Source: Bacillus sp. (in: firmicutes) (lineage in GTDB: Bacteria > Bacillota > Bacilli > Bacillales > DSM-1321). From it: 64,000 nt of DNA. The notes beneath the pieces are model-generated. The model made no database searches, was not told the DNA's origin, and saw nothing but the letters and a program-made list of their open reading frames with translations. The DNA lies in contig JBJEFM010000077.1 of NCBI GenBank assembly GCA_051874035.1, positions 1,557-65,556 of the forward strand, given 5' to 3'. The position numbers were made by a program, and so were the translations under genes. Positions 1 through 44,261 of the stretch are shown one piece after another (position 1 is the first letter of the stretch; each line of letters starts with the position of its first letter).

Positions 1-362
1 AAATCTTCATCCAGCAGAATCAGTTTCTCATCCAATTTCGCTTGTATTCCTGAATAATCGGCCAGGATAGCCGTAATTTCCGAACGCCATCTCTTCGCTC
101 CGGCATCCTTCATATTTTGCGCTTCCAGACACCCTATATAACTATCACTTTGGCTCAATTTCTTCTCGACACTGGCGATTAAACGCAAAACTTCAGATAA
201 CTCGCGCTCGTCTTGCTTGCACGAAACAACTTTCCAATTATTCAAATGCGCCTCCAATTGCTCCATCTCTTGCTTGATTTCTCTTATGTAGGCAGCAAAT
301 TGCTCTGAATTACTTCCACCTTCAAAAAACACATCTAAATTCCAAATAGGTGAATAAGACAT
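1..362 (-). CDS. M3-family oligoendopeptidase (PepF-like), 5' part only; runs off the window edge
   Basis: Manual translation from ATG at 362, with RBS GAGGAGG upstream: MSYSPIWNLDVFFEGGSNSEQF..., open to base 1. The W(D/N)LDxFFxGGSxS start is typical of Bacillus M3B oligoendopeptidases. The catalytic HExxH is not in the window. Confidence 0.7.
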   Translation of the reverse strand, partial: MSYSPIWNLDVFFEGGSNSEQFAAYIREIKQEMEQLEAHLNNWKVVSCKQDERELSEVLRLIASVEKKLSQSDSYIGCLEAQNMKDAGAKRWRSEITAILADYSGIQAKLDEKLILLDED

Positions 363-422
363 ATACTTCTCCTCCTCTTCAAAGTTATCTACATTTTACC
401 ATTAGTAGCTCATCTAAACCAA

Positions 423-449
423 AGAAAGCTTATGCAAGATAAGCTTTCT
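423..449 (-). terminator. Stem-loop terminator after the small 452-658 gene
   Basis: AGAAAGCTTAT-GCAAG-ATAAGCTTTCT, an 11-bp perfect stem 2 nt after the stop codon. Confidence 0.75.
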
Positions 450-451
450 AA

Positions 452-658
452 TCAGCAACAGCTATTATTCCACCAGCCATTGCAAAACCACCATCCACCG
501 AATATTAATAAAATCACGATGATGATAATGAATAGCGCACAGCTTCCTCCTGCTCCATTTCCACAGCATGGGACAGCCCTGGGGGGAATCGGCGGGGGCG
601 GGGGCGCTGGCGGCGGCAACGGGCAGCCATATCCATATGAAGCATATCCATATCCCAT
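452..658 (-). CDS. Small Gly/Tyr-, Pro- and Cys-rich membrane peptide (68 aa), loosely YjcZ-like
   Basis: Strong RBS AAGGAGG(AG) just upstream of ATG, its own terminator, a hydrophobic segment ALFIIIIVILLIFGG and a GYGY start as in YjcZ-type sporulation peptides. Confidence 0.7.
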   Translation of the reverse strand: MGYGYASYGYGCPLPPPAPPPPPIPPRAVPCCGNGAGGSCALFIIIIVILLIFGGWWFCNGWWNNSCC

Positions 659-688
659 TCAAGCTCCTCCTTCCTGCTTTCTCCTTAT

Positions 689-715
689 TAAAATATGTAA
701 CTAAGCCCGCATTGT
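689..715 (-). promoter_or_regulatory. Putative sigma-K-type promoter for the 452-658 gene
   Basis: Minus strand reads AC-N16-CATATTTTA, matching the AC-N16/17-CATANNNTA consensus. Confidence 0.45.
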
Positions 716-782
716 TCCTTATTTCGCTTGTCCTTTCTTGAAAAGATACAAGCCTTTTTTAGAAAACCTATGTTGTACAGAC

Positions 783-810
783 ACGATTACTATCTCAGCA
801 ACATAGTATA
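783..810 (+). promoter_or_regulatory. Putative sigK promoter (sigma-E/sigma-K type)
   Basis: AC(783-784)-N17-CATAGTATA(802-810). The upstream GTACAGACAC resembles my recollection of the B. subtilis sigK promoter region. Confidence 0.6.
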
Positions 811-850
811 GGATTATAGGCGAATGTCCGAATAAAGCGGGGGTGATCGA

Positions 851-1564
851 TTGTCTGGATTATTCATGGCACTTGGATATATCATAAAAGAATTTGTACT
901 GCTCGTTTCATATGTGAAGAATAATGCCTTTCCACAACCTTTATCGGCAAAGGATGAACAAAAATACTTACAATTAATGAGCAAAGGAGATCCTGAAGCA
1001 CGAAATATTTTAATCGAACATAATTTGCGTCTTGTCGCCCATATCGTGAAGAAGTTTGAAAATACGGGCGAAGAAACAGAAGATTTGATTTCCATAGGTA
1101 CCATCGGCCTCATCAAAGCTATTGAAAGCTACTCAGATGGAAAAGGAACAAAACTTGCCACCTATGCCGCGCGCTGTATCGAAAATGAAATCCTTATGCA
1201 TCTGCGCGCAACGAAGAAAACAAAAAAAGATGTATCCCTCCACGACCCGATTGGACAGGATAAAGAAGGAAATGAAATATCCCTGATAGATGTGTTGAAA
1301 TCAGAATCCGAAGATGTAATTGATACCATTCAATTGAATCTGGAGATTGAAAAAGTGAAGAAATATATTGATGTACTCGATGAAAGAGAAAAAGAAGTCA
1401 TTGTGAACCGCTTCGGACTCGGGACGTTCAAAGAAAAAACACAACGGGAAATCGCCAAAGAGCTGGGAATTTCACGAAGTTATGTATCACGCATCGAAAA
1501 GCGTGCACTCATGAAAATGTTCCATGAATTCTACAGAGCGGAAAAAGAGAGAAAAAAATCATAA
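851..1564 (+). CDS. sigK: Pro-sigma-K, mother-cell sporulation sigma factor, uninterrupted
   Basis: TTG start after GGGGTGA. The 20-aa pro-sequence ...[16 protein letters not shown] is followed by [35 protein letters not shown] and the region-4 [17 protein letters not shown]. Confidence 0.97.
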
Positions 1565-1902
1565 AGTGAATCTTTGATAAGCGGGTTCTTCACCTCAGCC
1601 TATCATTAGATGAACCAATCGGGTTGTTATAGGCACTTTGATCTCCCGCTTGCTCATCTATGTCTTCACTTCTGTGCCGGAGCGGGAATCTTAGTGCCTG
1701 TTAAACGGGATAAAGTGAATCTTTGATAGGCGGTTCTTTACCCCCGCCTATCATTAGATGAACCAATCGGGTTGTTATAGGCACTTTGATCTCCCGCTTG
1801 CTCATCTATGTCTTCACTTCTGTGCCGGAGCGGGAATCTTAGTGCCTGTTAAACGGGATAAAGTGAATCTTTGATAGGCGGTTCTTTACCCCCGCCTATC
1901 AT
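1561..1902 (+). repeat. Head-to-tail array of ~148-bp bcr1-like structured repeats (2 full copies plus a 5' fragment)
   Basis: ATAAAGTGAATCTTTGATA starts at 1561, 1710 and 1858. The sequence 1598-1902 has an exact 148-bp period, with internal inverted repeats. Confidence 0.92.
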
Positions 1903-1977
1903 ATTACATGTCCGCCTTCCTCCTTATGCACCCTCAACCAATAGAAAAAAAGCCCCCTATTCTAGAGAGCTTTTACT

Positions 1978-2232
1978 TTACTGTATAGAATCCTGTTCTT
2001 CCGCTTGAATGGCTTTTTTCTTATAACGAATCGATAACGTAAAGAATAAAGCGGAACTACATAAAAAAACAAACGTGGATATAATCAATATAGTTGTATT
2101 CATTGTTCCTTCAATAAGGGAAATGGACGTTCCTAAATAAAGAAAGACACTTAAACATAGAAGTGTAAAACCATAGCGTTTATAATCAACCATCTTCTCA
2201 TGAAAGACTGTATTATTGGTAGACTGTTTCAC
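1978..2232 (-). CDS. yrhC: YrhC-family small membrane protein
   Basis: 84 aa with the K..DYKRYGFTLL motif and two hydrophobic segments, in the syntenic position downstream of mtnN. Confidence 0.75.
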   Translation of the reverse strand: MKQSTNNTVFHEKMVDYKRYGFTLLCLSVFLYLGTSISLIEGTMNTTILIISTFVFLCSSALFFTLSIRYKKKAIQAEEQDSIQ

Positions 2233-2347
2233 AAAGAATCACCTACACTCTCTATAATTTGTACTTTTACACTGTAACATAATCATAGAGGGCATATCCT
2301 ATGTAATAGTTGGCAGCTTTGGCATTGAAAACTTAACCAAAATCAAA

Positions 2348-2386
2348 AACCCCCTAAGTTGAATTTTCAGTCCAACTTAAGGGGTT
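2348..2386 (-). terminator. Intrinsic terminator after mtnN
   Basis: AACCCCCTAAGTTG...CAACTTAAGGGGTT stem, followed on the minus strand by TTTTTGATTT. Confidence 0.75.
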
Positions 2387-2429
2387 CACTTCATGGCCGG
2401 CAGCTTTTTATGTGGATAAAGATATGCCC

Positions 2430-3128
2430 TTATGCTTTTAATTCCGCGACGATATTCATAACAAGCTGCGAGGAGTTCACAGCGGCTGTTTCTAGGAATT
2501 TATCGAATGAAATATTGGATTCTTTCCCTGCAATATCCGATAAAGCGCGGATGACAACAAAAGGAATCCCGAATTGGTACGCCACTTGCGCGATTGCCGC
2601 AGCTTCCATTTCCACTGCTTGCAGGTCTTGAAATTTCGTTCTTACAAATTCTACACGCTCAGGATCATTCATGAATGAATCCCCTGTAGCAATCAGGCCT
2701 TTAGCAACTTGCATGCCTTGAATATGTTCAGCGGCTCTTTCCGATGCCTCGATTAACTTCTCGTCAGCTACATAAGTTGGCGGCATTTGCGGAACTTGAC
2801 CATAAGCATAACCGAAGATTGTTGCATCCACATCATGATGCACAACTTCTGAAGAAATAACCACATCGCCTACTTCCAGATTTTTTGCATATCCGCCCGC
2901 TGAACCTGTATTAATAACGGCTGTCGGCTGATATTTCTCCAATAGAATAGTCGTCGACATCGCTGCATTCACTTTACCGATCCCTGATTTAAGTAAAACG
3001 ACATCCACACCGTCCAATGTACCGACATTGAATTCGCAACCGGCGATTACCTCTTGTTGTACATCTTCCATTTTGTTTCGTAGTATTTGTACCTCTTCTT
3101 CCATTGCTCCAATGATTGCGATTTTCAT
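2430..3128 (-). CDS. mtnN: 5'-methylthioadenosine/S-adenosylhomocysteine nucleosidase
   Basis: [33 protein letters not shown] and RALSDIAG motifs. Confidence 0.97.
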
Positions 3129-3146
3129 TATTTAACACCCTTCTCT

Positions 3147-3788
3147 TTATAATTTAATAGCTTCAAGCATCCACACAAACCGATTGCACGGCTTGAATGA
3201 AACCACAAAGCCATTGTCGTCAAATAGACTTTGCAAATAAGGAATTGTTGTATAGTATTCTGTTCGAAGATCCTTCGCCAATTGGGTAAAACCACTGATT
3301 TCCGCATCTGAAATCGCTCGCTGATGGGCTTCTCCCGTTTCATACATCGTATCTGCAAACACTATTTTACCACCTTTTATTAACAAGTTGCCATATCGTT
3401 TCACAGCAACGGCTTTTTCTTGGTCGGTTAAATGATGAAAGGCATATGTGCTGACAATCGAATCGACGGATTCCACAGCCGGGAACTCCAGAAAATCCCC
3501 TTCATGAAAAACAACATTTCCTTGTTGGATTTTCCGCTCGGCAATTTCACGCATAGGCATGGATGGTTCAATGGCGGTGACACTACGGCCTTTATCAAGC
3601 AACTTGACTGTCAGGTTGCCTGTCCCGGCCCCGAACTCCAGCACATGTCCTGCAGATGCTGCCGCTACGCTTTCCAGAATTTGCTCATACCCACGGAAAA
3701 CTTCTTCATATTCTACATCGTGCCCACTTACCGTCCGATCATAATCTTCTGCCCACTCTTCAAAAATCGGTAAAAATTCTCTCCCCAT
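3147..3788 (-). CDS. yrrT: Class I SAM-dependent methyltransferase YrrT
   Basis: Start MGREF at 3788; the ORF track extension lacks an RBS. Contains motif I VLEFGAGTGNLT and STYAFHHL. Directly upstream of mtnN as in B. subtilis. Confidence 0.88.
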   Translation of the reverse strand: MGREFLPIFEEWAEDYDRTVSGHDVEYEEVFRGYEQILESVAAASAGHVLEFGAGTGNLTVKLLDKGRSVTAIEPSMPMREIAERKIQQGNVVFHEGDFLEFPAVESVDSIVSTYAFHHLTDQEKAVAVKRYGNLLIKGGKIVFADTMYETGEAHQRAISDAEISGFTQLAKDLRTEYYTTIPYLQSLFDDNGFVVSFKPCNRFVWMLEAIKL

Positions 3789-3913
3789 TCTTCTCGCCCC
3801 TTTGTTGATTATTCTGATTAACATACTATGTTTTAAAATTCTATTCGATTTAAGAAAAAACGTGCCGAACATGATATAATTTTTTGTACATATTATCCGA
3901 CCAGGAGGAAGAA

Positions 3914-4123
3914 ATGAATATTTCGTTTGATTTAATTGAAGATAAAGTGGAATTCTTTGAAGCGACAACCCTGCAAGACCTTGAGAAGAAGATTCAAGCG
4001 CAAATCGACATCAACAAAACCATTCTACTCACCGTTCATTCTGTCTCTCATCAGTTGCATGTAAGCGAAGACGGCCGGAAGCTATATAGCGCAGTCGTCC
4101 ATTTCAAAAATAAAAAAGCCTGA
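3914..4123 (+). CDS. yrzA: YrzA / DUF2536 family protein
   Basis: RBS AGGAGG then MNISFDLIEDKVEFFEA...YSAVVHFK; divergent from yrrT as in B. subtilis. Confidence 0.85.
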   Translation: MNISFDLIEDKVEFFEATTLQDLEKKIQAQIDINKTILLTVHSVSHQLHVSEDGRKLYSAVVHFKNKKA

Positions 4124-4164
4124 TGCGCTTCCTATTTGTAAATAGAGAAGAGCGTCAGGCTTTT
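4114..4164. terminator. Bidirectional terminator between convergent yrzA and yrrS
   Basis: AAAAGCCTGATGCGCTTC...GAAGAGCGTCAGGCTTTT, with an A-run and a T-run on the two sides. Confidence 0.75.
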
Positions 4165-4173
4165 CTTTTATAG

Positions 4174-4866
4174 TCACTTCAGTTTTTCCACTTTTGTCGG
4201 TTTCCAGCCTTGGCCATCAACCCATTGAATATATACTTTATATTTTGATCCATCGCCTTTTGATAAAACGGTGCCTTCCGCTTTATCCGGAGCGCCGCCA
4301 TTCCCCAACCAGAGAACGGTCATGCCGCTTTGATCGATGCCCGCCCCGTAAGCCAAGGCTTTCTCCATTTCATTCCAGTCCGTAGTTCCTTGTGTATATG
4401 TTGTTACATGCTCGCCGGTTTGTTCCGTGCCGATAGGCTCCCAGCTCTCATTCACGCGTGTTTCTTCCACCGATGGGTTGCCGCTGTTCTCGACAATCCG
4501 GTCATCTTCCTCCGGTTTCTTTTCTACATCTGCAGAATCCTCTTTATCCTCATCGGTTGTATCTTCTTCATCTGTTTTTTCCGGATCATTCGTCTTTTCA
4601 TCGTCTGCATCCTGATCCAAACCATTGGTAGTATCTTCATCATCTTTAGCTGTTTCTTTCTCATCATCTTGTACTTGCTGCGATTTATTCTCTTTATTCG
4701 GAGTGGCTGTTTCTTTATCGTCTTTCCCTAAGAAGATCGAAGCGCTCACAATGATAATCGCAACAATAACAATAGTTAGAAGAATATTATAAACAGTATT
4801 TGCTTTTCTTTTTTTACCCACTTTTTCAGAACGAGAAGTAAGTCTAGATGGTTTATCGTCTCTCAT
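4174..4866 (-). CDS. yrrS: YrrS family protein (N-terminal TM, acidic linker, DUF1510 C-terminus)
   Basis: TM segment at aa ~25-46 and a C-terminal WEPIGTEQ...WLGNGG...YKVYIQWVDGQGWKP. Confidence 0.88.
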   Translation of the reverse strand: MRDDKPSRLTSRSEKVGKKRKANTVYNILLTIVIVAIIIVSASIFLGKDDKETATPNKENKSQQVQDDEKETAKDDEDTTNGLDQDADDEKTNDPEKTDEEDTTDEDKEDSADVEKKPEEDDRIVENSGNPSVEETRVNESWEPIGTEQTGEHVTTYTQGTTDWNEMEKALAYGAGIDQSGMTVLWLGNGGAPDKAEGTVLSKGDGSKYKVYIQWVDGQGWKPTKVEKLK

Positions 4867-4942
4867 TCATATCACCCCACCTTTTTATTCAACCCTTATT
4901 GTAACAGTCTTGTTTCCGATTTTGAAGTAAATACGTATTTTT

Positions 4943-6727
4943 CTACTCTTCGTTTTTATTCGAAGGCTTGTTTTTCTGCAATTCCATGATACGTCCGATA
5001 TACTCCTTTGCCGCCTTTGTGGCACTTCCGTTGGGCAATTGCCCATCCTCGTCCAGTTTCACTACAGCAATCGCATATTTAGGATTTTCCACAGGAAAAT
5101 ATCCGCCAAACCAGCTGTTCACTTTTCCTTTAGCTTGGTTTGTTTGCGCCGTTCCCGTCTTGCCTGCCACCTCAATCGGCAAATCGCGCATATGCATGGC
5201 CGCTGTCCCTTTCTCATTCTGGGTCACACCTGTCAGCAATTGTTGAAGTTGCTTCGCTGTCCGAGGCGCAATTTTTTTCCCATCGATATCTATATCTTCG
5301 AATTCTGCCGCTGTCGTACCATTTGCAAATTGAATCTTACTGACTGCTTTCACCATTTTTCTTTCCCCATTACGGGCGATTGTGGCCATCATATTCGCCA
5401 CGCCCAATGGGGTCGCTTGCACATCCTTCTGTCCAATGGCTGTTTGGGAGACGAAATTCACATCTTTCCGATCCGTTTCTTCTAACCAGACACGGCCTGC
5501 TTCTTCACGGAACAATTGCTTAACATGCGAATGAAAGACAGTGCCATTCCATCCCGATTGACCGATGAGCTGCAGTTTCTCCGCGTATTCCTCTACCAGA
5601 CCAGGATTTTTCTTGGATAGCTCTACAGCCACGTCGGCAAACGTCCGATTGCAGCTTTGGGCGAAGCTATCCGTGAAATTCAACATCCCTAATGGTTCGG
5701 AACGGTTTTGATCGACCATTCCATTGATGGTAAGATTGCAATTATATAACGTTTGCTCATCTATTAGGTGTTCTTCAATGGCCGCAGCAGCGACTACTGT
5801 TTTAAATACAGAGCCGAGTGCCGCTTGCGTAAACATCGCATTCTTGGCTCCATCGCCTTCATTCGGATCGGACCCGACTTGCGGCCTCGAAACAGACGCT
5901 GCGATTTCGCTTGATTCGATATCGATAAGAATGAGCCCGCCTTTTCGTATATGGTTCTGGTCCACAATTTCCTCGGCGGCTTGTTGCAATTCCGAATCCA
6001 ATGTCGTCATAACACGTACCGGATATAACGGGTTGCCCGGCGCTAAATATTTCACATTAATGCCGAATAAAGGCCCCCCTATGCCATCCACATGATAAAC
6101 AAGCTTCGATTCACCTTCTGAGAGCAAGAATTCATCCAGCGTTTGTTGTAAGCCTTTATCGCCCACTTTCGTCTGGGGAGAAAGATATCGACCTCCATAA
6201 CGCTGCTGTTTCAACTCAGCGGATTCACTTAACCCTCCGATTAAATGTTGAGCAATTGTATGCTTGGTCGGCATATTGCGAATTGCTGCGAATACACCTG
6301 GCGTCTTCAATTCGTTGATTTGTTCCATTTGCCGTTCAGTAAGAAGAACCGGTTGATCGTCTATTGAAAAAATAAAGGGTTCCTTCGCATGCTGCAGCGC
6401 TTCTGTTACATTTGACGCCGGTACATCTATAATGTCCGCTAACTCTTCCACAGGCCATGCCATCTTCTTTAGAAACGGAAACAGAATGAGCGTCGGCACT
6501 TGTTCATGGTTGAGCGGTTCCCCTATGCGGTCGTAAAACTTGCCCCGCCCGTCATCGAGTTCGATGCTCTGTATACGCTGGTCCACACTTGCTTCAATTA
6601 AGTCAATATGGTGCTTCCCGAATGTTTCCGTGCTCACTAGCTGAATTTGAACAAGCCTTGCTATCAGTACACATAAAAGAAAAAGAAACAGGCCGGCGAT
6701 ACCTATCGCTCTTTTTTTCTTCAGCAT
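4943..6727 (-). CDS. pbpI: Class B penicillin-binding protein (PbpI/YrrR type)
   Basis: N-terminal TM and RG.FYDR motif, with intact SxxK (SVFK), SxN (SCN) and KTG motifs; synteny with yrrS. Confidence 0.85.
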   Translation of the reverse strand: MLKKKRAIGIAGLFLFLLCVLIARLVQIQLVSTETFGKHHIDLIEASVDQRIQSIELDDGRGKFYDRIGEPLNHEQVPTLILFPFLKKMAWPVEELADIIDVPASNVTEALQHAKEPFIFSIDDQPVLLTERQMEQINELKTPGVFAAIRNMPTKHTIAQHLIGGLSESAELKQQRYGGRYLSPQTKVGDKGLQQTLDEFLLSEGESKLVYHVDGIGGPLFGINVKYLAPGNPLYPVRVMTTLDSELQQAAEEIVDQNHIRKGGLILIDIESSEIAASVSRPQVGSDPNEGDGAKNAMFTQAALGSVFKTVVAAAAIEEHLIDEQTLYNCNLTINGMVDQNRSEPLGMLNFTDSFAQSCNRTFADVAVELSKKNPGLVEEYAEKLQLIGQSGWNGTVFHSHVKQLFREEAGRVWLEETDRKDVNFVSQTAIGQKDVQATPLGVANMMATIARNGERKMVKAVSKIQFANGTTAAEFEDIDIDGKKIAPRTAKQLQQLLTGVTQNEKGTAAMHMRDLPIEVAGKTGTAQTNQAKGKVNSWFGGYFPVENPKYAIAVVKLDEDGQLPNGSATKAAKEYIGRIMELQKNKPSNKNEE

Positions 6728-16643: not shown

Positions 16644-16791
16644 CCGTTTAACAGGTACTAAAACTCCCGCTCCAGCACAGCAGTGAAAACACAGATATAC
16701 AATCGGGAGATCAAGTACCTGCAACAGCTAAGATTGGTTCATCTTTGATAGCTGCGGGATAAAAACCCCCACTATCAAAGATTCACTTTAT
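16644..16791 (-). repeat. bcr1-like structured repeat, minus orientation, terminal GATAAA missing
   Basis: Minus strand ATAAAGTGAATCTTTGATAGTGGGGG...AGATGAACCAATC...CAGGTACTTGATCTCCCG...GAGCGGGAGTTTTAGTACCTGTTAAACGG. Confidence 0.9.
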
Positions 16792-33102: not shown

Positions 33103-33262
33103 ATAAAGTGAATCTTTGATAGGTGGGGGGTTGCCTTCATCCCCCACCTATCATTAGATGAACCAACCTTAGTTGTTACAGGTACTTGATCTCCCACTTA
33201 CACATCTACGCTTTCACTGCTGTGTTGAAGTGGGAACCTTAGTACCTGTTAAACGGGATAAA
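33103..33262 (+). repeat. Complete bcr1-like element, 155 bp plus a duplicated ATAAA
   Basis: ATAAA at 33103-33107 and 33258-33262. Stems TGATAGGTGGGGG/CCCCCACCTATCA, ACAGGTAC/GTACCTGT and TCCCACTT/AAGTGGGA. Confidence 0.92.
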
Positions 33263-44088: not shown

Positions 44089-44226
44089 GTGGTTAATACT
44101 TCATTTTCCATATATAATTATCTAAAGCGCTTACATATCTAATAAACCGCCTGCAATTATCTACCATTATTTTCATTTCATTCAAAAACAAACACAAAAA
44201 ACCTGCCTATATTTATTTATTTTGCC

Positions 44227-44261
44227 AAGTGGGAGCCTTAGTACTTGTTAAACAGGATAAA
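44227..44261 (+). repeat. Truncated right end of the bcr1-like element
   Basis: AAGTGGGAGCCTTAGTACTTGTTAAACAGGATAAA versus AAGTGGGAACCTTAGTACCTGTTAAACGGGATAAA (33228-33262): 32 of 35 identical. Confidence 0.85.

Follow-up and report, generated by a model that had tools for sequence, protein, structure and literature searches.

In the present study, the array of hairpin-forming repeats that begins within the stop codon of sigK in this Bacillus sp. genome was found, very probably, to consist of 2.3 units, arranged head to tail, of a mobile bcr1-type repeat that carries no gene; this is the best explanation of the data as a whole. Two further results are of wider use. First, the family is very large and recently expanded in this genome, and provides statistics on how repeats of this kind move. 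Second, it reaches well beyond the Bacillus cereus group.

Structure of the array and its neighborhood

Tandem Repeats Finder placed the array at positions 1561-1902 of the window (the whole stretch of 64,000 nt of DNA analyzed), with a period of 148, 2.3 copies, 97% matches, and a score of 647. The pentamer ATAAA occurs at 1561, 1710, and 1858, and neighboring units have one ATAAA in common at each junction, as expected from the head-to-tail arrangement described in the initial annotation of this DNA. The exact 148-bp period that had been claimed for 1598-1902 (plus strand) was likewise recovered by self-comparison, as 1746-1902 repeats 1598-1754 letter for letter over 157 bases, and this periodicity may be read as the trace of one in-place duplication between two hairpin-A modules. 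Unit 1 (1561-1714, plus strand) is a full-length family copy (nhmmer model positions 1-157, 143 bits) composed of ATAAA, a leader, hairpin A, a linker, hairpin B, and a closing ATAAA. It is 97% identical to unit 2, and its hairpin A (about 1575-1605) is decayed, in agreement with the earlier observation that the first hairpin A has diverged: all five differences between units 1 and 2 fall within 1580-1597, and this hairpin folds at only -8.1 kcal/mol, compared with -16.2 kcal/mol in the later copies. Unit 2 (1710-1862, plus strand), which is also full length, holds ATAAA 1710-1714 jointly with unit 1 and ATAAA 1858-1862 jointly with unit 3, and contains a perfect 10-bp hairpin A at 1724-1753 and a long hairpin B at about 1777-1849. 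Unit 3 (1858-1902, plus strand) is a 45-nt 5' fragment consisting of ATAAA, the leader, and hairpin A (1872-1901); it stops after CCTATCAT without a right terminus and matches the start of unit 2 with no differences. Both of these units were delimited by the period, the folds, and nhmmer. Folding of the array was stronger than that of shuffled sequences on both strands (z -7.3 and -6.6). In the sequence and the terminator scan, no T run follows either unit hairpin on either strand, indicating that these hairpins are not intrinsic terminators. A search of window positions 1-5000 against Rfam gave no family match to the array at E values up to 1, and the two array junctions had no match in an exact-pattern scan of metagenome contigs.

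The gene upstream is sigK (851-1564, plus strand), an uninterrupted reading frame of 237 aa in the ORF list (TIGR02846, 381 bits against a cut-off of 299), with a TAA stop codon (1562-1564) that forms part of the first ATAAA of the array. On the other side, a short unique spacer (1903-1947), recognized by comparison with nine same-genus loci and named relatives, leads to the intrinsic terminator (1948-1974, minus strand) of a yrhC-like gene of 84 aa (1978-2232, minus strand; PF14143, 60.9 bits against a cut-off of 27) that converges on sigK. The terminator scan and the folds located this convergent terminator after the array, where the initial annotation had expected it; the hairpin reaches -13.1 kcal/mol (z -2.9) on the minus strand and is weak on the plus strand (-6.7 kcal/mol, z -1.5). 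A consensus scan also confirmed that no plus-strand terminator is present between sigK and the minus-strand terminator at 1974-1948. At the place of the spacer, the relatives have sigK's own terminator and a gene for a hydrophobic peptide of ~27 aa. Unlike in the nine same-genus loci and the named relatives, this terminator is missing here, and the peptide gene was found nowhere in the assembly. Since the first ATAAA overlaps the stop codon and no terminator comes before the array, the latter is almost certainly part of the sigK transcript, which supports, on sequence grounds, what had been proposed earlier, and the sigK mRNA would read through about 340 nt of hairpins.

Reliability of the assembly

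The genome is a fragmented short-read draft of 243 contigs, the repeat family breaks the assembly at 131 places, and units 2 and 3 are identical, so that the copy number is not fixed by sequence alone. These features might favor the explanation that the second unit is an assembly artefact, produced when a loop in the graph was walked once too often or when reads from other copies were mixed in. However, we regard such an artefact as extremely improbable. No array k-mer of length 45 or more recurs elsewhere in the genome, and a loop would need reads joining the end of the second hairpin A to the linker before hairpin B. Moreover, the same 2.3-copy array is found in two further assemblies, GCA_034150105.1 and ERZ27258020, both of which encode an identical SigK. 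The two array units of ERZ27258020 differ at two sites and are thus distinguishable, so that the second one cannot be the invention of a k=141 assembler. The three assemblies, with flanks that are 99.96-99.98% identical, differ solely in which B units carry the two-site variant, and no insertion polymorphism between near-identical assemblies was observed within 40 kb. Judged from these comparisons, the array is no artefact of this assembly, and the true copy number could be higher where the assembled units are identical.

The repeat family and its conserved fold

Searches with nhmmer revealed 439 matches to the family of the array unit in this genome, 168 of them full length, which together amount to 1.2% of the genome; 131 of the 439 touch contig ends. 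Thus, the initial reading of the sigK unit was only partly upheld: the head-to-tail order and the local duplication stood, but the unit is not specific to sigK and belongs to a dispersed mobile family. The family consensus is 160 bp long, compared with 153-154 bp for the sigK units and 148-163 bp for most copies, and has no coding capacity. Conservation begins and ends sharply at the two ATAAA pentamers, which read TTTAT on the opposite strand. The ends of the family, ATAAAGTGAATC... and ...AACGGGATAAA, are direct repeats with the hairpins lying 14 and about 20 nt inside them, and no terminal inverted repeats were observed in the family copies. Internally deleted variants retain both termini, and distinct subfamilies are present in this genome, including a ~92-bp form with hairpin A only. 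An exact-pattern scan of a genome-contig database for the family termini returned no match.

The copies are mostly intergenic, with only 2 of the 168 full copies inside crude ORFs. About 14 other head-to-tail junctions with one common pentamer were found and none head to head, and one tandem junction of the common-pentamer kind occurs in a genome of another family. As at sigK, 22 elements have an ATAAA that encloses the stop codon of the gene upstream, and this is the favored setting of the family. Elsewhere in the window, nhmmer detected another copy at 16644-16791 on the minus strand (model positions 1-151, 127 bits), a full-length young copy at 33103-33262 on the plus strand that is 96% identical to the consensus, and a 3'-terminal fragment at 44226-44261 on the plus strand (model positions 122-157).

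Folding of the family unit gave two independent hairpins, A and B. When 145 copies were aligned plainly with MAFFT, indels in the loops misaligned the arms and made the alignment unsuited to RNAalifold; covariation was instead tested with a named structure on a diverse 24-sequence alignment. For 23 diverse copies, representing 15 or more GTDB families, the proportion of cells that pair was 90.4%, compared with 81.6% in shuffles, and 23 of the 53 pairs have changed on both sides. The covariation score of 0.284 (against 0.130) was reached by none of 500 shuffles, and slid controls scored at most 0.077. The top-strand fold is the more stable in 122 of 154 copies. Isolated mismatches in the genome copies (G:T vs. 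A:C, 60:48) showed no significant excess, and the top-strand wobble excess in the cross-genus alignment vanishes when four apical or fold-derived pairs are left out.

Origin of the array

The site at the sigK stop is empty in the named relatives and in 8 of 9 readable same-genus species. The closest sister species, G001, does have an element there, with its left end at the stop codon (contig C222) and a decayed right end that starts another contig (C57). The array partners are 97-100% identical, and the nearest copy elsewhere in the genome reaches 86%. The extra unit arose in place, as unit 2 is far closer to its array neighbors (97-100%) than to any other copy (at most 86%), and this local duplication is consistent with the earlier proposal of a duplicated unit that is out of register with the ends of the element.

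Herein, we propose the following history of the locus. First, an element would have settled at the sigK-stop pentamer before the split from the closest sampled relative, and because the element itself begins with ATAAA, the stop of SigK would have been kept within about one codon of its old place. Second, in this lineage, the locus would then have consisted of one full element and a 5' fragment of a second element, the right part of which was lost, probably in the same deletion that took the terminator of sigK and the small peptide gene. Third, recombination or slippage between hairpin-A modules 148 bp apart would have led to the duplication of one unit. Finally, gene conversion would now keep the units of the array alike. 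The two-site variant sits on different B units across the three assemblies, which indicates that the units are being homogenized.

Mobility of the family

Of 177 copies, 162 have ATAAA as the left pentamer and 140 as the right, and in 133 the pentamers of the two ends agree. Non-consensus pentamers were counted 15 times on the left and 37 times on the right, with an identical variant on both sides in only 2 of the 44 copies concerned. The orientation of the copies follows replication (90:44): of 134 copies, 90 have the TTTAT-first strand on the G-rich strand (p 9e-5), and this relation persists within every gene context. Relative to the flanking genes, no orientation bias was observed (48:45). 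In relatives, empty sites hold a single pentamer-like sequence, and one of these sites fits target-side insertion without duplication slightly better. Near-identical strains yielded no recent pair of filled and empty sites. In addition, an insertion sequence carrying TnpB (contigs C158/C32) lies directly 3' of the TTTAT of a family copy, and its left-end hairpin aligns with hairpin B at an equal offset from TTTAT, with a score of 28 compared with 15.1 +/- 2.2 in shuffles (0 of 1000). The similarity of this left end to the family is modest, with an nhmmer score of 7.9 bits (E 6e-4 for a search of 1 kb), and that of the right end is not significant.

Elements of the bcr1 type are usually described as classical miniature inverted-repeat elements that are mobilized by a DDE transposase and duplicate a 5-bp TTTAT target. 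Several observations agree with this description, including the same pentamer at both ends in 133 of the 177 copies, the single pentamer-like sequence at the empty sites of relatives, and the possible duplication of TTTAT upon bcr1 insertion (PMC6199540). Nevertheless, we consider it unlikely for the present family. Its termini form direct repeats, with subterminal hairpins and no terminal inverted repeats, departures from the consensus pentamer are 2.5 times as frequent at one end, with the variant matched on both sides in only 2 of 44 copies, the orientation is biased by replication, every tandem junction is head to tail, and no longer element with both termini was found.

The asymmetric pentamers, the replication-linked orientation, and the hairpin end of the TnpB insertion sequence point instead to single-strand transposition like that of IS200/IS605 elements. 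According to this proposal, the family would move as single-stranded DNA, inserting into the lagging-strand template on the 3' side of a TTTAT-like target. The element would carry its own TTTAT at the 3' end and thereby re-create a target, which might give rise to the head-to-tail arrays. Repeats of the bcr1 type have been orphan "MITEs" since 1999. We tentatively hypothesize, with somewhat less than even confidence, that they may represent a Bacillales-wide family that derives from TTTAT-targeting IS200/IS605 elements, encodes no protein, and moves as single-stranded DNA. If true, this IS200/IS605 reading would explain why arrays with a common pentamer arise, why TAA stop codons are so often taken over, and how the family expanded in a burst to 1.2% of the genome. 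The asymmetry of the pentamers could also be due in part to selection on left pentamers that serve as stop codons.

The possible source of a transposase was also investigated. The only tnpB in this genome is a degraded pseudogene, which is interrupted by an in-frame stop codon and has its parts on two contigs. The Y1 transposase domain PF01797 was found neither in this draft, which is 97% complete, nor in the copy-rich genome G009; it is present in 7 of 12 genomes of the genus and does not track with element abundance. A blastn-short comparison of the family consensus with four tnpA loci revealed chance words only, and the flanks of the tnpA loci in genus relatives gave no clear match save for a similar right-end hairpin motif in G001. 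As a candidate autonomous partner, the only pair of left and right termini more than 200 bp apart was rejected, as it encloses housekeeping genes.

Possible effect on sigK expression

The initial annotation had further suggested that the copy number of the array acts as a tuning knob. In such an explanation, the array is a functional cis-acting module of the sigK mRNA, in which the hairpins serve as substrates of RNase III or block 3' exonucleases and the number of copies tunes the half-life. The array starts in the stop codon with no plus-strand terminator before the weak hairpin at 1948-1974 and should be transcribed with sigK, its fold is strong (z -7.3), and an element occupies the same site in the closest sister species, all of which are consistent with a regulatory module. 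Also, about half of the bcr copies in B. cereus are parts of mRNAs, and bcr3 has been associated with longer half-lives (PMC3446304). Despite these observations, we consider a regulatory module very unlikely. The same element has about 440 copies and shows no orientation preference relative to neighboring genes (48:45), the wobble pairs give no clear sign of selection on one RNA strand, and the orientation tracks replication, a property of DNA. Insertions that overlap a stop codon occur in 22 elements besides the sigK setting, the site is empty in 8 of the 9 readable species of the genus, and the copy number is equal in three assemblies. In B. cereus, moreover, the presence of bcr1 in a transcript was uncorrelated with mRNA half-life, and bcr3 alone was correlated (PMC3446304). 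The tuning-knob claim was thus not borne out, given the lack of variation among three near-identical assemblies, the 48:45 orientation ratio, and the behavior of bcr1 in B. cereus.

With about 440 copies genome-wide, there is no sign that the array was placed to regulate sigK, although an effect of the array on the sigK mRNA is possible. These results also call for caution, as even a conspicuous structured extension at the 3' end of a master sporulation regulator may be the by-product of a selfish repeat landing at ATAAA stop contexts throughout the genome. Because sigK here is without its own terminator and has about 340 nt of stable hairpins to read through, the locus might provide a natural test case for the effect of such repeats on mRNA fate.

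Comparison with known repeat elements

IS200/IS605 elements and their derivatives without protein genes (PATEs) move as single-stranded DNA through a Y1 HUH transposase. The present family resembles them in having subterminal hairpins instead of terminal inverted repeats, a fixed adjoining pentanucleotide, and a target-side pentamer that is more variable than the element-side pentamer. It also resembles them in its replication-linked orientation, which has the direction expected for insertion into the lagging-strand template, and in a left-end hairpin similar to that of the TnpB-carrying insertion sequence in this genome. Unlike these elements, the family is without a Y1 transposase here, its replication bias is only 2:1, and its transposition is putative. 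A bias of 2:1 is weaker than that reported for members of the IS200/IS605 family such as IS608.

Small dispersed repeats are also known from other hosts, including Correia/NEMIS in Neisseria, ERIC in enterobacteria, BOX, RUP, and SPRITE in pneumococcus, and REP/BIME in Escherichia coli. Among them, BOX and BIME also build tandem modular arrays, and effects on RNA processing or stability have been measured for several of these elements. Like the present family, they are small, hairpin-forming, dispersed repeats found in UTRs (PMC3184786), but they have no sequence relation to it.

A further comparison is with the bcr1 element. The family consensus can be aligned from one end to the other with a ~157-bp repeat of B. 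cereus-group plasmids, to which it is about 75% identical. This TTTAT-flanked repeat was seen on plasmids of B. mycoides, B. cereus, and B. thuringiensis and has at least 42 matches in one B. cereus genome; it appears to be bcr1, a name assigned from its length, ends, structure, and copy number instead of the published consensus. Published summaries describe bcr1 as the most abundant bcr element, about 155 bp long, with TTTAT at its ends and two independent stem-loops with compensatory changes (PMC6542083, PMC3184786), and place it in group A of the Bacillus cereus repeats, bcr1-bcr3 (PMC6542083, PMC3184786, PMC6199540). According to a claim of 2004, bcr1 is restricted to the B. cereus group. 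In the present study, full-length homologues were found in 47 of 401 sampled Bacillales genomes and in 22 of 132 genera, including B. benzoevorans. The restriction is therefore taken as outdated and not as grounds to exclude the present repeats from the bcr1 family. Searching the literature for elements like bcr1 in hosts other than the B. cereus group yielded nothing relevant.

Both repeats are about 155-160 bp long, with TTTAT/ATAAA ends and two independent stem-loops kept by compensatory changes, and both are intergenic, occur in many copies at variable positions, and are often found in UTRs. The present family differs from bcr1 in its host, which is a Neobacillus-like genus and not a member of the B. 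cereus group, and in its size, with 168 full copies and 439 matches compared with 11-130 full copies for bcr1. It is further distinguished by its subfamilies, including the short form with hairpin A only, and by the head-to-tail arrays documented here.

Structure and setting of the repeat array at sigK

The initial annotation described a head-to-tail array with a single ATAAA at each junction and an exact 148-bp period, and this description was borne out by a repeat finder and by direct comparison. Tandem Repeats Finder reported one array, at 1561-1902 (period 148, 2.3 copies, 97% matches), comprising units 1 and 2 and a 5' fragment of unit 3. ATAAA is found at 1561, 1710 and 1858, with one pentamer per junction common to both neighbouring units, and 1598-1754 is identical to 1746-1902 over 157 bases. 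The divergence noted for the first hairpin-A region was also observed: units 1 and 2 differ at five positions, all in 1580-1597 within hairpin A of unit 1, and because these differences fall inside the hairpin, its fold is weak (-8.1 kcal/mol, not above shuffles) compared with the later hairpin A copies (-16.2 kcal/mol, z -4.6). The whole array folds far more stably than shuffled sequence (z -7.3 and -6.6 for the two strands).

The array directly follows sigK (851-1564, plus strand; TIGR02846, 381 bits versus a cut-off of 299), whose TAA stop codon is bases 2-4 of the first ATAAA, and a YrhC-like gene (PF14143; 1978-2232, minus strand) converges on sigK. A terminator scan of the interval between the two genes found no plus-strand terminator, consistent with the earlier claim that none serves sigK before the convergent terminator of yrhC; the sole terminator-like site, at 1974-1948, is on the minus strand. 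In the minus-strand reading its hairpin has -13.1 kcal/mol (z -2.9), and in the plus-strand reading it has two A-C mismatches and -6.7 kcal/mol (z -1.5). The GC skew of the plus strand is -0.14 across window 1-64000, and therefore sigK is on the lagging strand, head-on to replication. Upstream of sigK, a minus-strand frame of 68 aa (452-658), rich in Gly, Tyr, Pro and Cys and with a hydrophobic tail, is reminiscent of the tiny YjcZ-like membrane peptides; an overlapping 45-aa frame (514-651, minus strand), which has no family match, is favoured by public gene calls.

Authenticity of the array

The window derives from a 243-contig draft, and two indirect tests support the view that the array is not an artefact of this assembly. 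First, all array 45-mers and 55-mers are confined to the array in a k-mer comparison with its own genome, so that no other locus could supply the join from the second hairpin A to the linker. Second, an identical SigK protein is present in NCBI GCA_034150105.1 (414-kb contig) and ENA ERZ27258020 (k141 metagenome contig), both of which carry the same 2.3-copy array. The three assemblies are 99.96-99.98% identical across two 20-kb stretches, but their array sequences are not all alike. Hairpin B varies in its 5' arm by two linked changes, a substitution and a 1-nt indel at window 1630-1640 and 1778-1788 (compared with loci L153 and L154), which give a first form, TTATAGGCACTTTGATC, and a second form, TTACAGGCAC-TTGATC, the latter being the family consensus. 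Both units have the first form in this window and the second form in GCA_034150105.1, and in ERZ27258020 unit 1 has the second form and unit 2 the first; the units are distinguishable in ERZ27258020, and its copy number is therefore fixed by sequence. Gene conversion or unequal exchange between units would produce such a distribution, and the occurrence of every possible pattern (three, homogenised or mixed) among near-identical assemblies indicates fast exchange between units. The array copy number is equal in all three assemblies, which speaks against the proposal that copy number acts as a tuning knob. The assemblies also show a G/A difference at about 1927.

A dispersed repeat family

The array gave 45 BLAST matches in its own genome and 471 segments with a more sensitive BLAST, and a profile built from 145 full-length copies gave 439 matches, 168 of them full length, occupying 1.2% of the 3.74-Mb genome. 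Since 131 matches reach contig ends, the family is the main cause of assembly fragmentation. The 160-bp consensus opens with ATAAA and a 9-nt leader; hairpin A, with a 13-bp stem, is joined by a linker to hairpin B (about 35 bp, interrupted by internal loops), and a further 10 nt lead to the closing ATAAA. Conservation starts and stops abruptly at the two pentamers. Short forms without hairpin B (about 92 bp, about 30 copies) and others without hairpin A keep both termini, as expected if a transposition enzyme needs them. Identity to the consensus is 96-99% for many copies, indicating a recent burst; the sigK units, only about 81% identical to it, are members of an older, shorter subfamily.

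About 14 other head-to-tail junctions with one shared pentamer were observed in the genome, and no head-to-head junction was found among the family junctions there. A genome from a different Bacillales family (L143, G413:C36:167231-167536) likewise contains a head-to-tail pair of full copies that overlap by 5 bases, so that the formation of shared-pentamer tandems is characteristic of the repeat family as a whole. Judged from sequence similarity, the tandems may have arisen in two ways. The partners at sigK (97-100%), C201 (95%) and C211 (91%) are closest to each other, pointing to local duplication, and those at contigs C111, C9 and C62 are closer to dispersed copies than to each other, pointing to independent insertion into the terminal pentamer of a resident element.

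The sigK setting is nothing unusual for the family. Elements are enriched between convergent genes (38/147 versus 14% of all intergenic spaces), and in 22 elements, as at sigK, the TAA of the upstream gene is that of the left ATAAA, an overlap involving 15% of elements versus 4.8% of free non-disruptive ATAAA sites. A young full-length copy (C91:86930-87090; L165:10834-10994) is located about 330 nt downstream of comK in the same orientation, so that a second developmental regulator has a family element in or near its 3' region.

History of the sigK locus

No element occupies the post-sigK site in the named relatives or in eight further species of the genus. In most of these, an ordinary hairpin with a T run follows sigK, and then a convergent gene for a hydrophobic peptide of about 27 residues (for example, MLMIVGSLIITSVIGIIIATEISVVDA), both lying between sigK and yrhC or mtnN (L112-L119, L123). 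The terminator and the peptide gene are missing at window 1903-1977, and the peptide gene was not found anywhere in the window's own assembly. In the closest sister species, G001 (SigK 96% identical), the sigK contig stops 30 nt into an element starting at the stop codon. Another G001 contig starts with a decayed hairpin B ending GGATAAA, followed by a hairpin and T run, the peptide gene and yrhC. The insertion therefore probably predates the split of the two species, and in G001 the element is inside the sigK transcription unit.

In the window, the second element copy (unit 3) is cut off after hairpin A, and a single deletion, abutting this truncated third unit, probably removed the right part of the element, the terminator and the peptide gene. 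In a later single event, the two hairpin-A modules, which lie 148 bp from each other and have CCTATCAT in common at the 3' edge, would have mispaired, so that hairpin B together with hairpin A was duplicated. Such an event fits because units 1 and 2 differ in hairpin A only and are otherwise identical, which also upholds the earlier view that the duplicated unit is out of register with the element ends.

Possible mode of movement of the family

A strand-specific mechanism of the IS200/IS605 kind, without target duplication, stands at a roughly even balance of probability. Four results speak for it. Instead of inverted repeats, the element has direct repeats at its ends, with subterminal hairpins. 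Among 177 copies located by internal anchors, ATAAA is present on the left in 162 and on the right in 140, and the non-consensus pentamers (15 left versus 37 right) agree between the two sides in only 2 copies. Target duplication would be expected to leave matching variants, unlike what is seen here; the pattern points to the right pentamer (5' TTTAT on the other strand) as the target and to the left one as part of the element. An empty-site comparison at one site, C91:15928, fits this slightly better. In addition, the TTTAT-first strand is on the G-rich strand (lagging-strand template) in 90/134 copies (p 9e-5), in tandem, convergent and divergent gene contexts alike. Relative to neighbouring genes no preference was found (48 versus 45), and the sigK array is oriented like most copies (local GC skew -0.14).

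The only tnpB of the genome (IS200/IS605-type; C158:24-1097 and C32:3183-3470, minus strand, outside the window) belongs to a single insertion sequence, which is divided between the two contigs and inactivated by an in-frame TAA. On its 5' side it directly adjoins the TTTAT of a truncated family copy (C158:1093-1159), and its left-end hairpin aligns with hairpin B at equal distance from TTTAT (local score 28 versus 15.1 +/- 2.2 shuffled, 0/1000); in a 1-kb search the profile matched it with 7.9 bits (E 6e-4). Against such a mechanism, however, the right ends of the insertion sequence and the repeat have no significant match, no Y1 transposase (PF01797) was found in the own genome or in G009, a genome with many copies of the element, and Y1 transposase presence across the genus does not track element abundance. 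In the tnpA-tnpB insertion sequence of G001 (L129, G001:C104), tnpB is followed at a distance of about 85 nt by a hairpin, GAAGCCCCCACTT...AAGTGG; this hairpin and the end motif, GGTAGTTCAC, together resemble the right end of the own-genome insertion sequence and, loosely, hairpin B.

Meaning for sigK

Transcripts of sigK almost certainly run into the array, and because no good terminator precedes yrhC, sigK mRNA probably continues into a long 3' extension with much secondary structure and may read on into yrhC as antisense. mRNAs can be protected by stable hairpins at the 3' end, and in B. cereus bcr3 elements correlated with longer half-lives, as would suit an array selected as a regulatory module of sigK. 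Such a role is nevertheless improbable: bcr1 (Bacillus cereus repeat) copies showed no such correlation in B. cereus (PMC3446304), the family has neither a transcription-related orientation bias nor a strand-specific wobble signal, copy number does not vary among the three assemblies, and most of the genus has no element at this site. The array may affect sigK mRNA as an unselected side effect. The initial annotation was accurate in its observations and partly supported in its interpretation.

Relationship to bcr1

Across its entire length the consensus is about 75% identical to an unannotated repeat of about 157 bp on plasmids of B. mycoides, B. cereus, B. tropicus and B. thuringiensis, with at least 42 matches (about 28 full length) in one B. 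cereus genome. Termini and both hairpins are alike, with three compensatory double changes in hairpin A alone. In a structure alignment of 23 distinct copies from at least 15 GTDB families, the two hairpins pair in 90.4% of cells versus 81.6 +/- 0.5% shuffled, 23/53 pairs have changes on both sides, and the covariation score is 0.284 versus 0.130, reached by 0/500 shuffles (slid controls at most 0.077).

The family was also found in 8/11 other species of the same genus and in B. benzoevorans, and full-length homologues are present in 47/401 genomes and 22/132 genera in an even sample of the order. By SigK, the closest named relatives are Bacillus sp. JJ1609 and Neobacillus species. In published descriptions (PMC6542083, PMC3184786, PMC6199540), bcr1 measures about 155 bp, has 5-bp direct repeats (TTTAT) on either side and is cruciform-like, with two independent stem-loops whose fold is preserved by compensatory changes; it is transcribed, is the commonest bcr element (11-130 full copies) and is reportedly limited to the B. 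cereus group. By its match to these features the family can be assigned to the bcr1 type, and its range is much wider than the B. cereus group. On this assignment, the array unit at sigK is a mobile repeat of bcr1 type, and the present genus is a new host for such elements.
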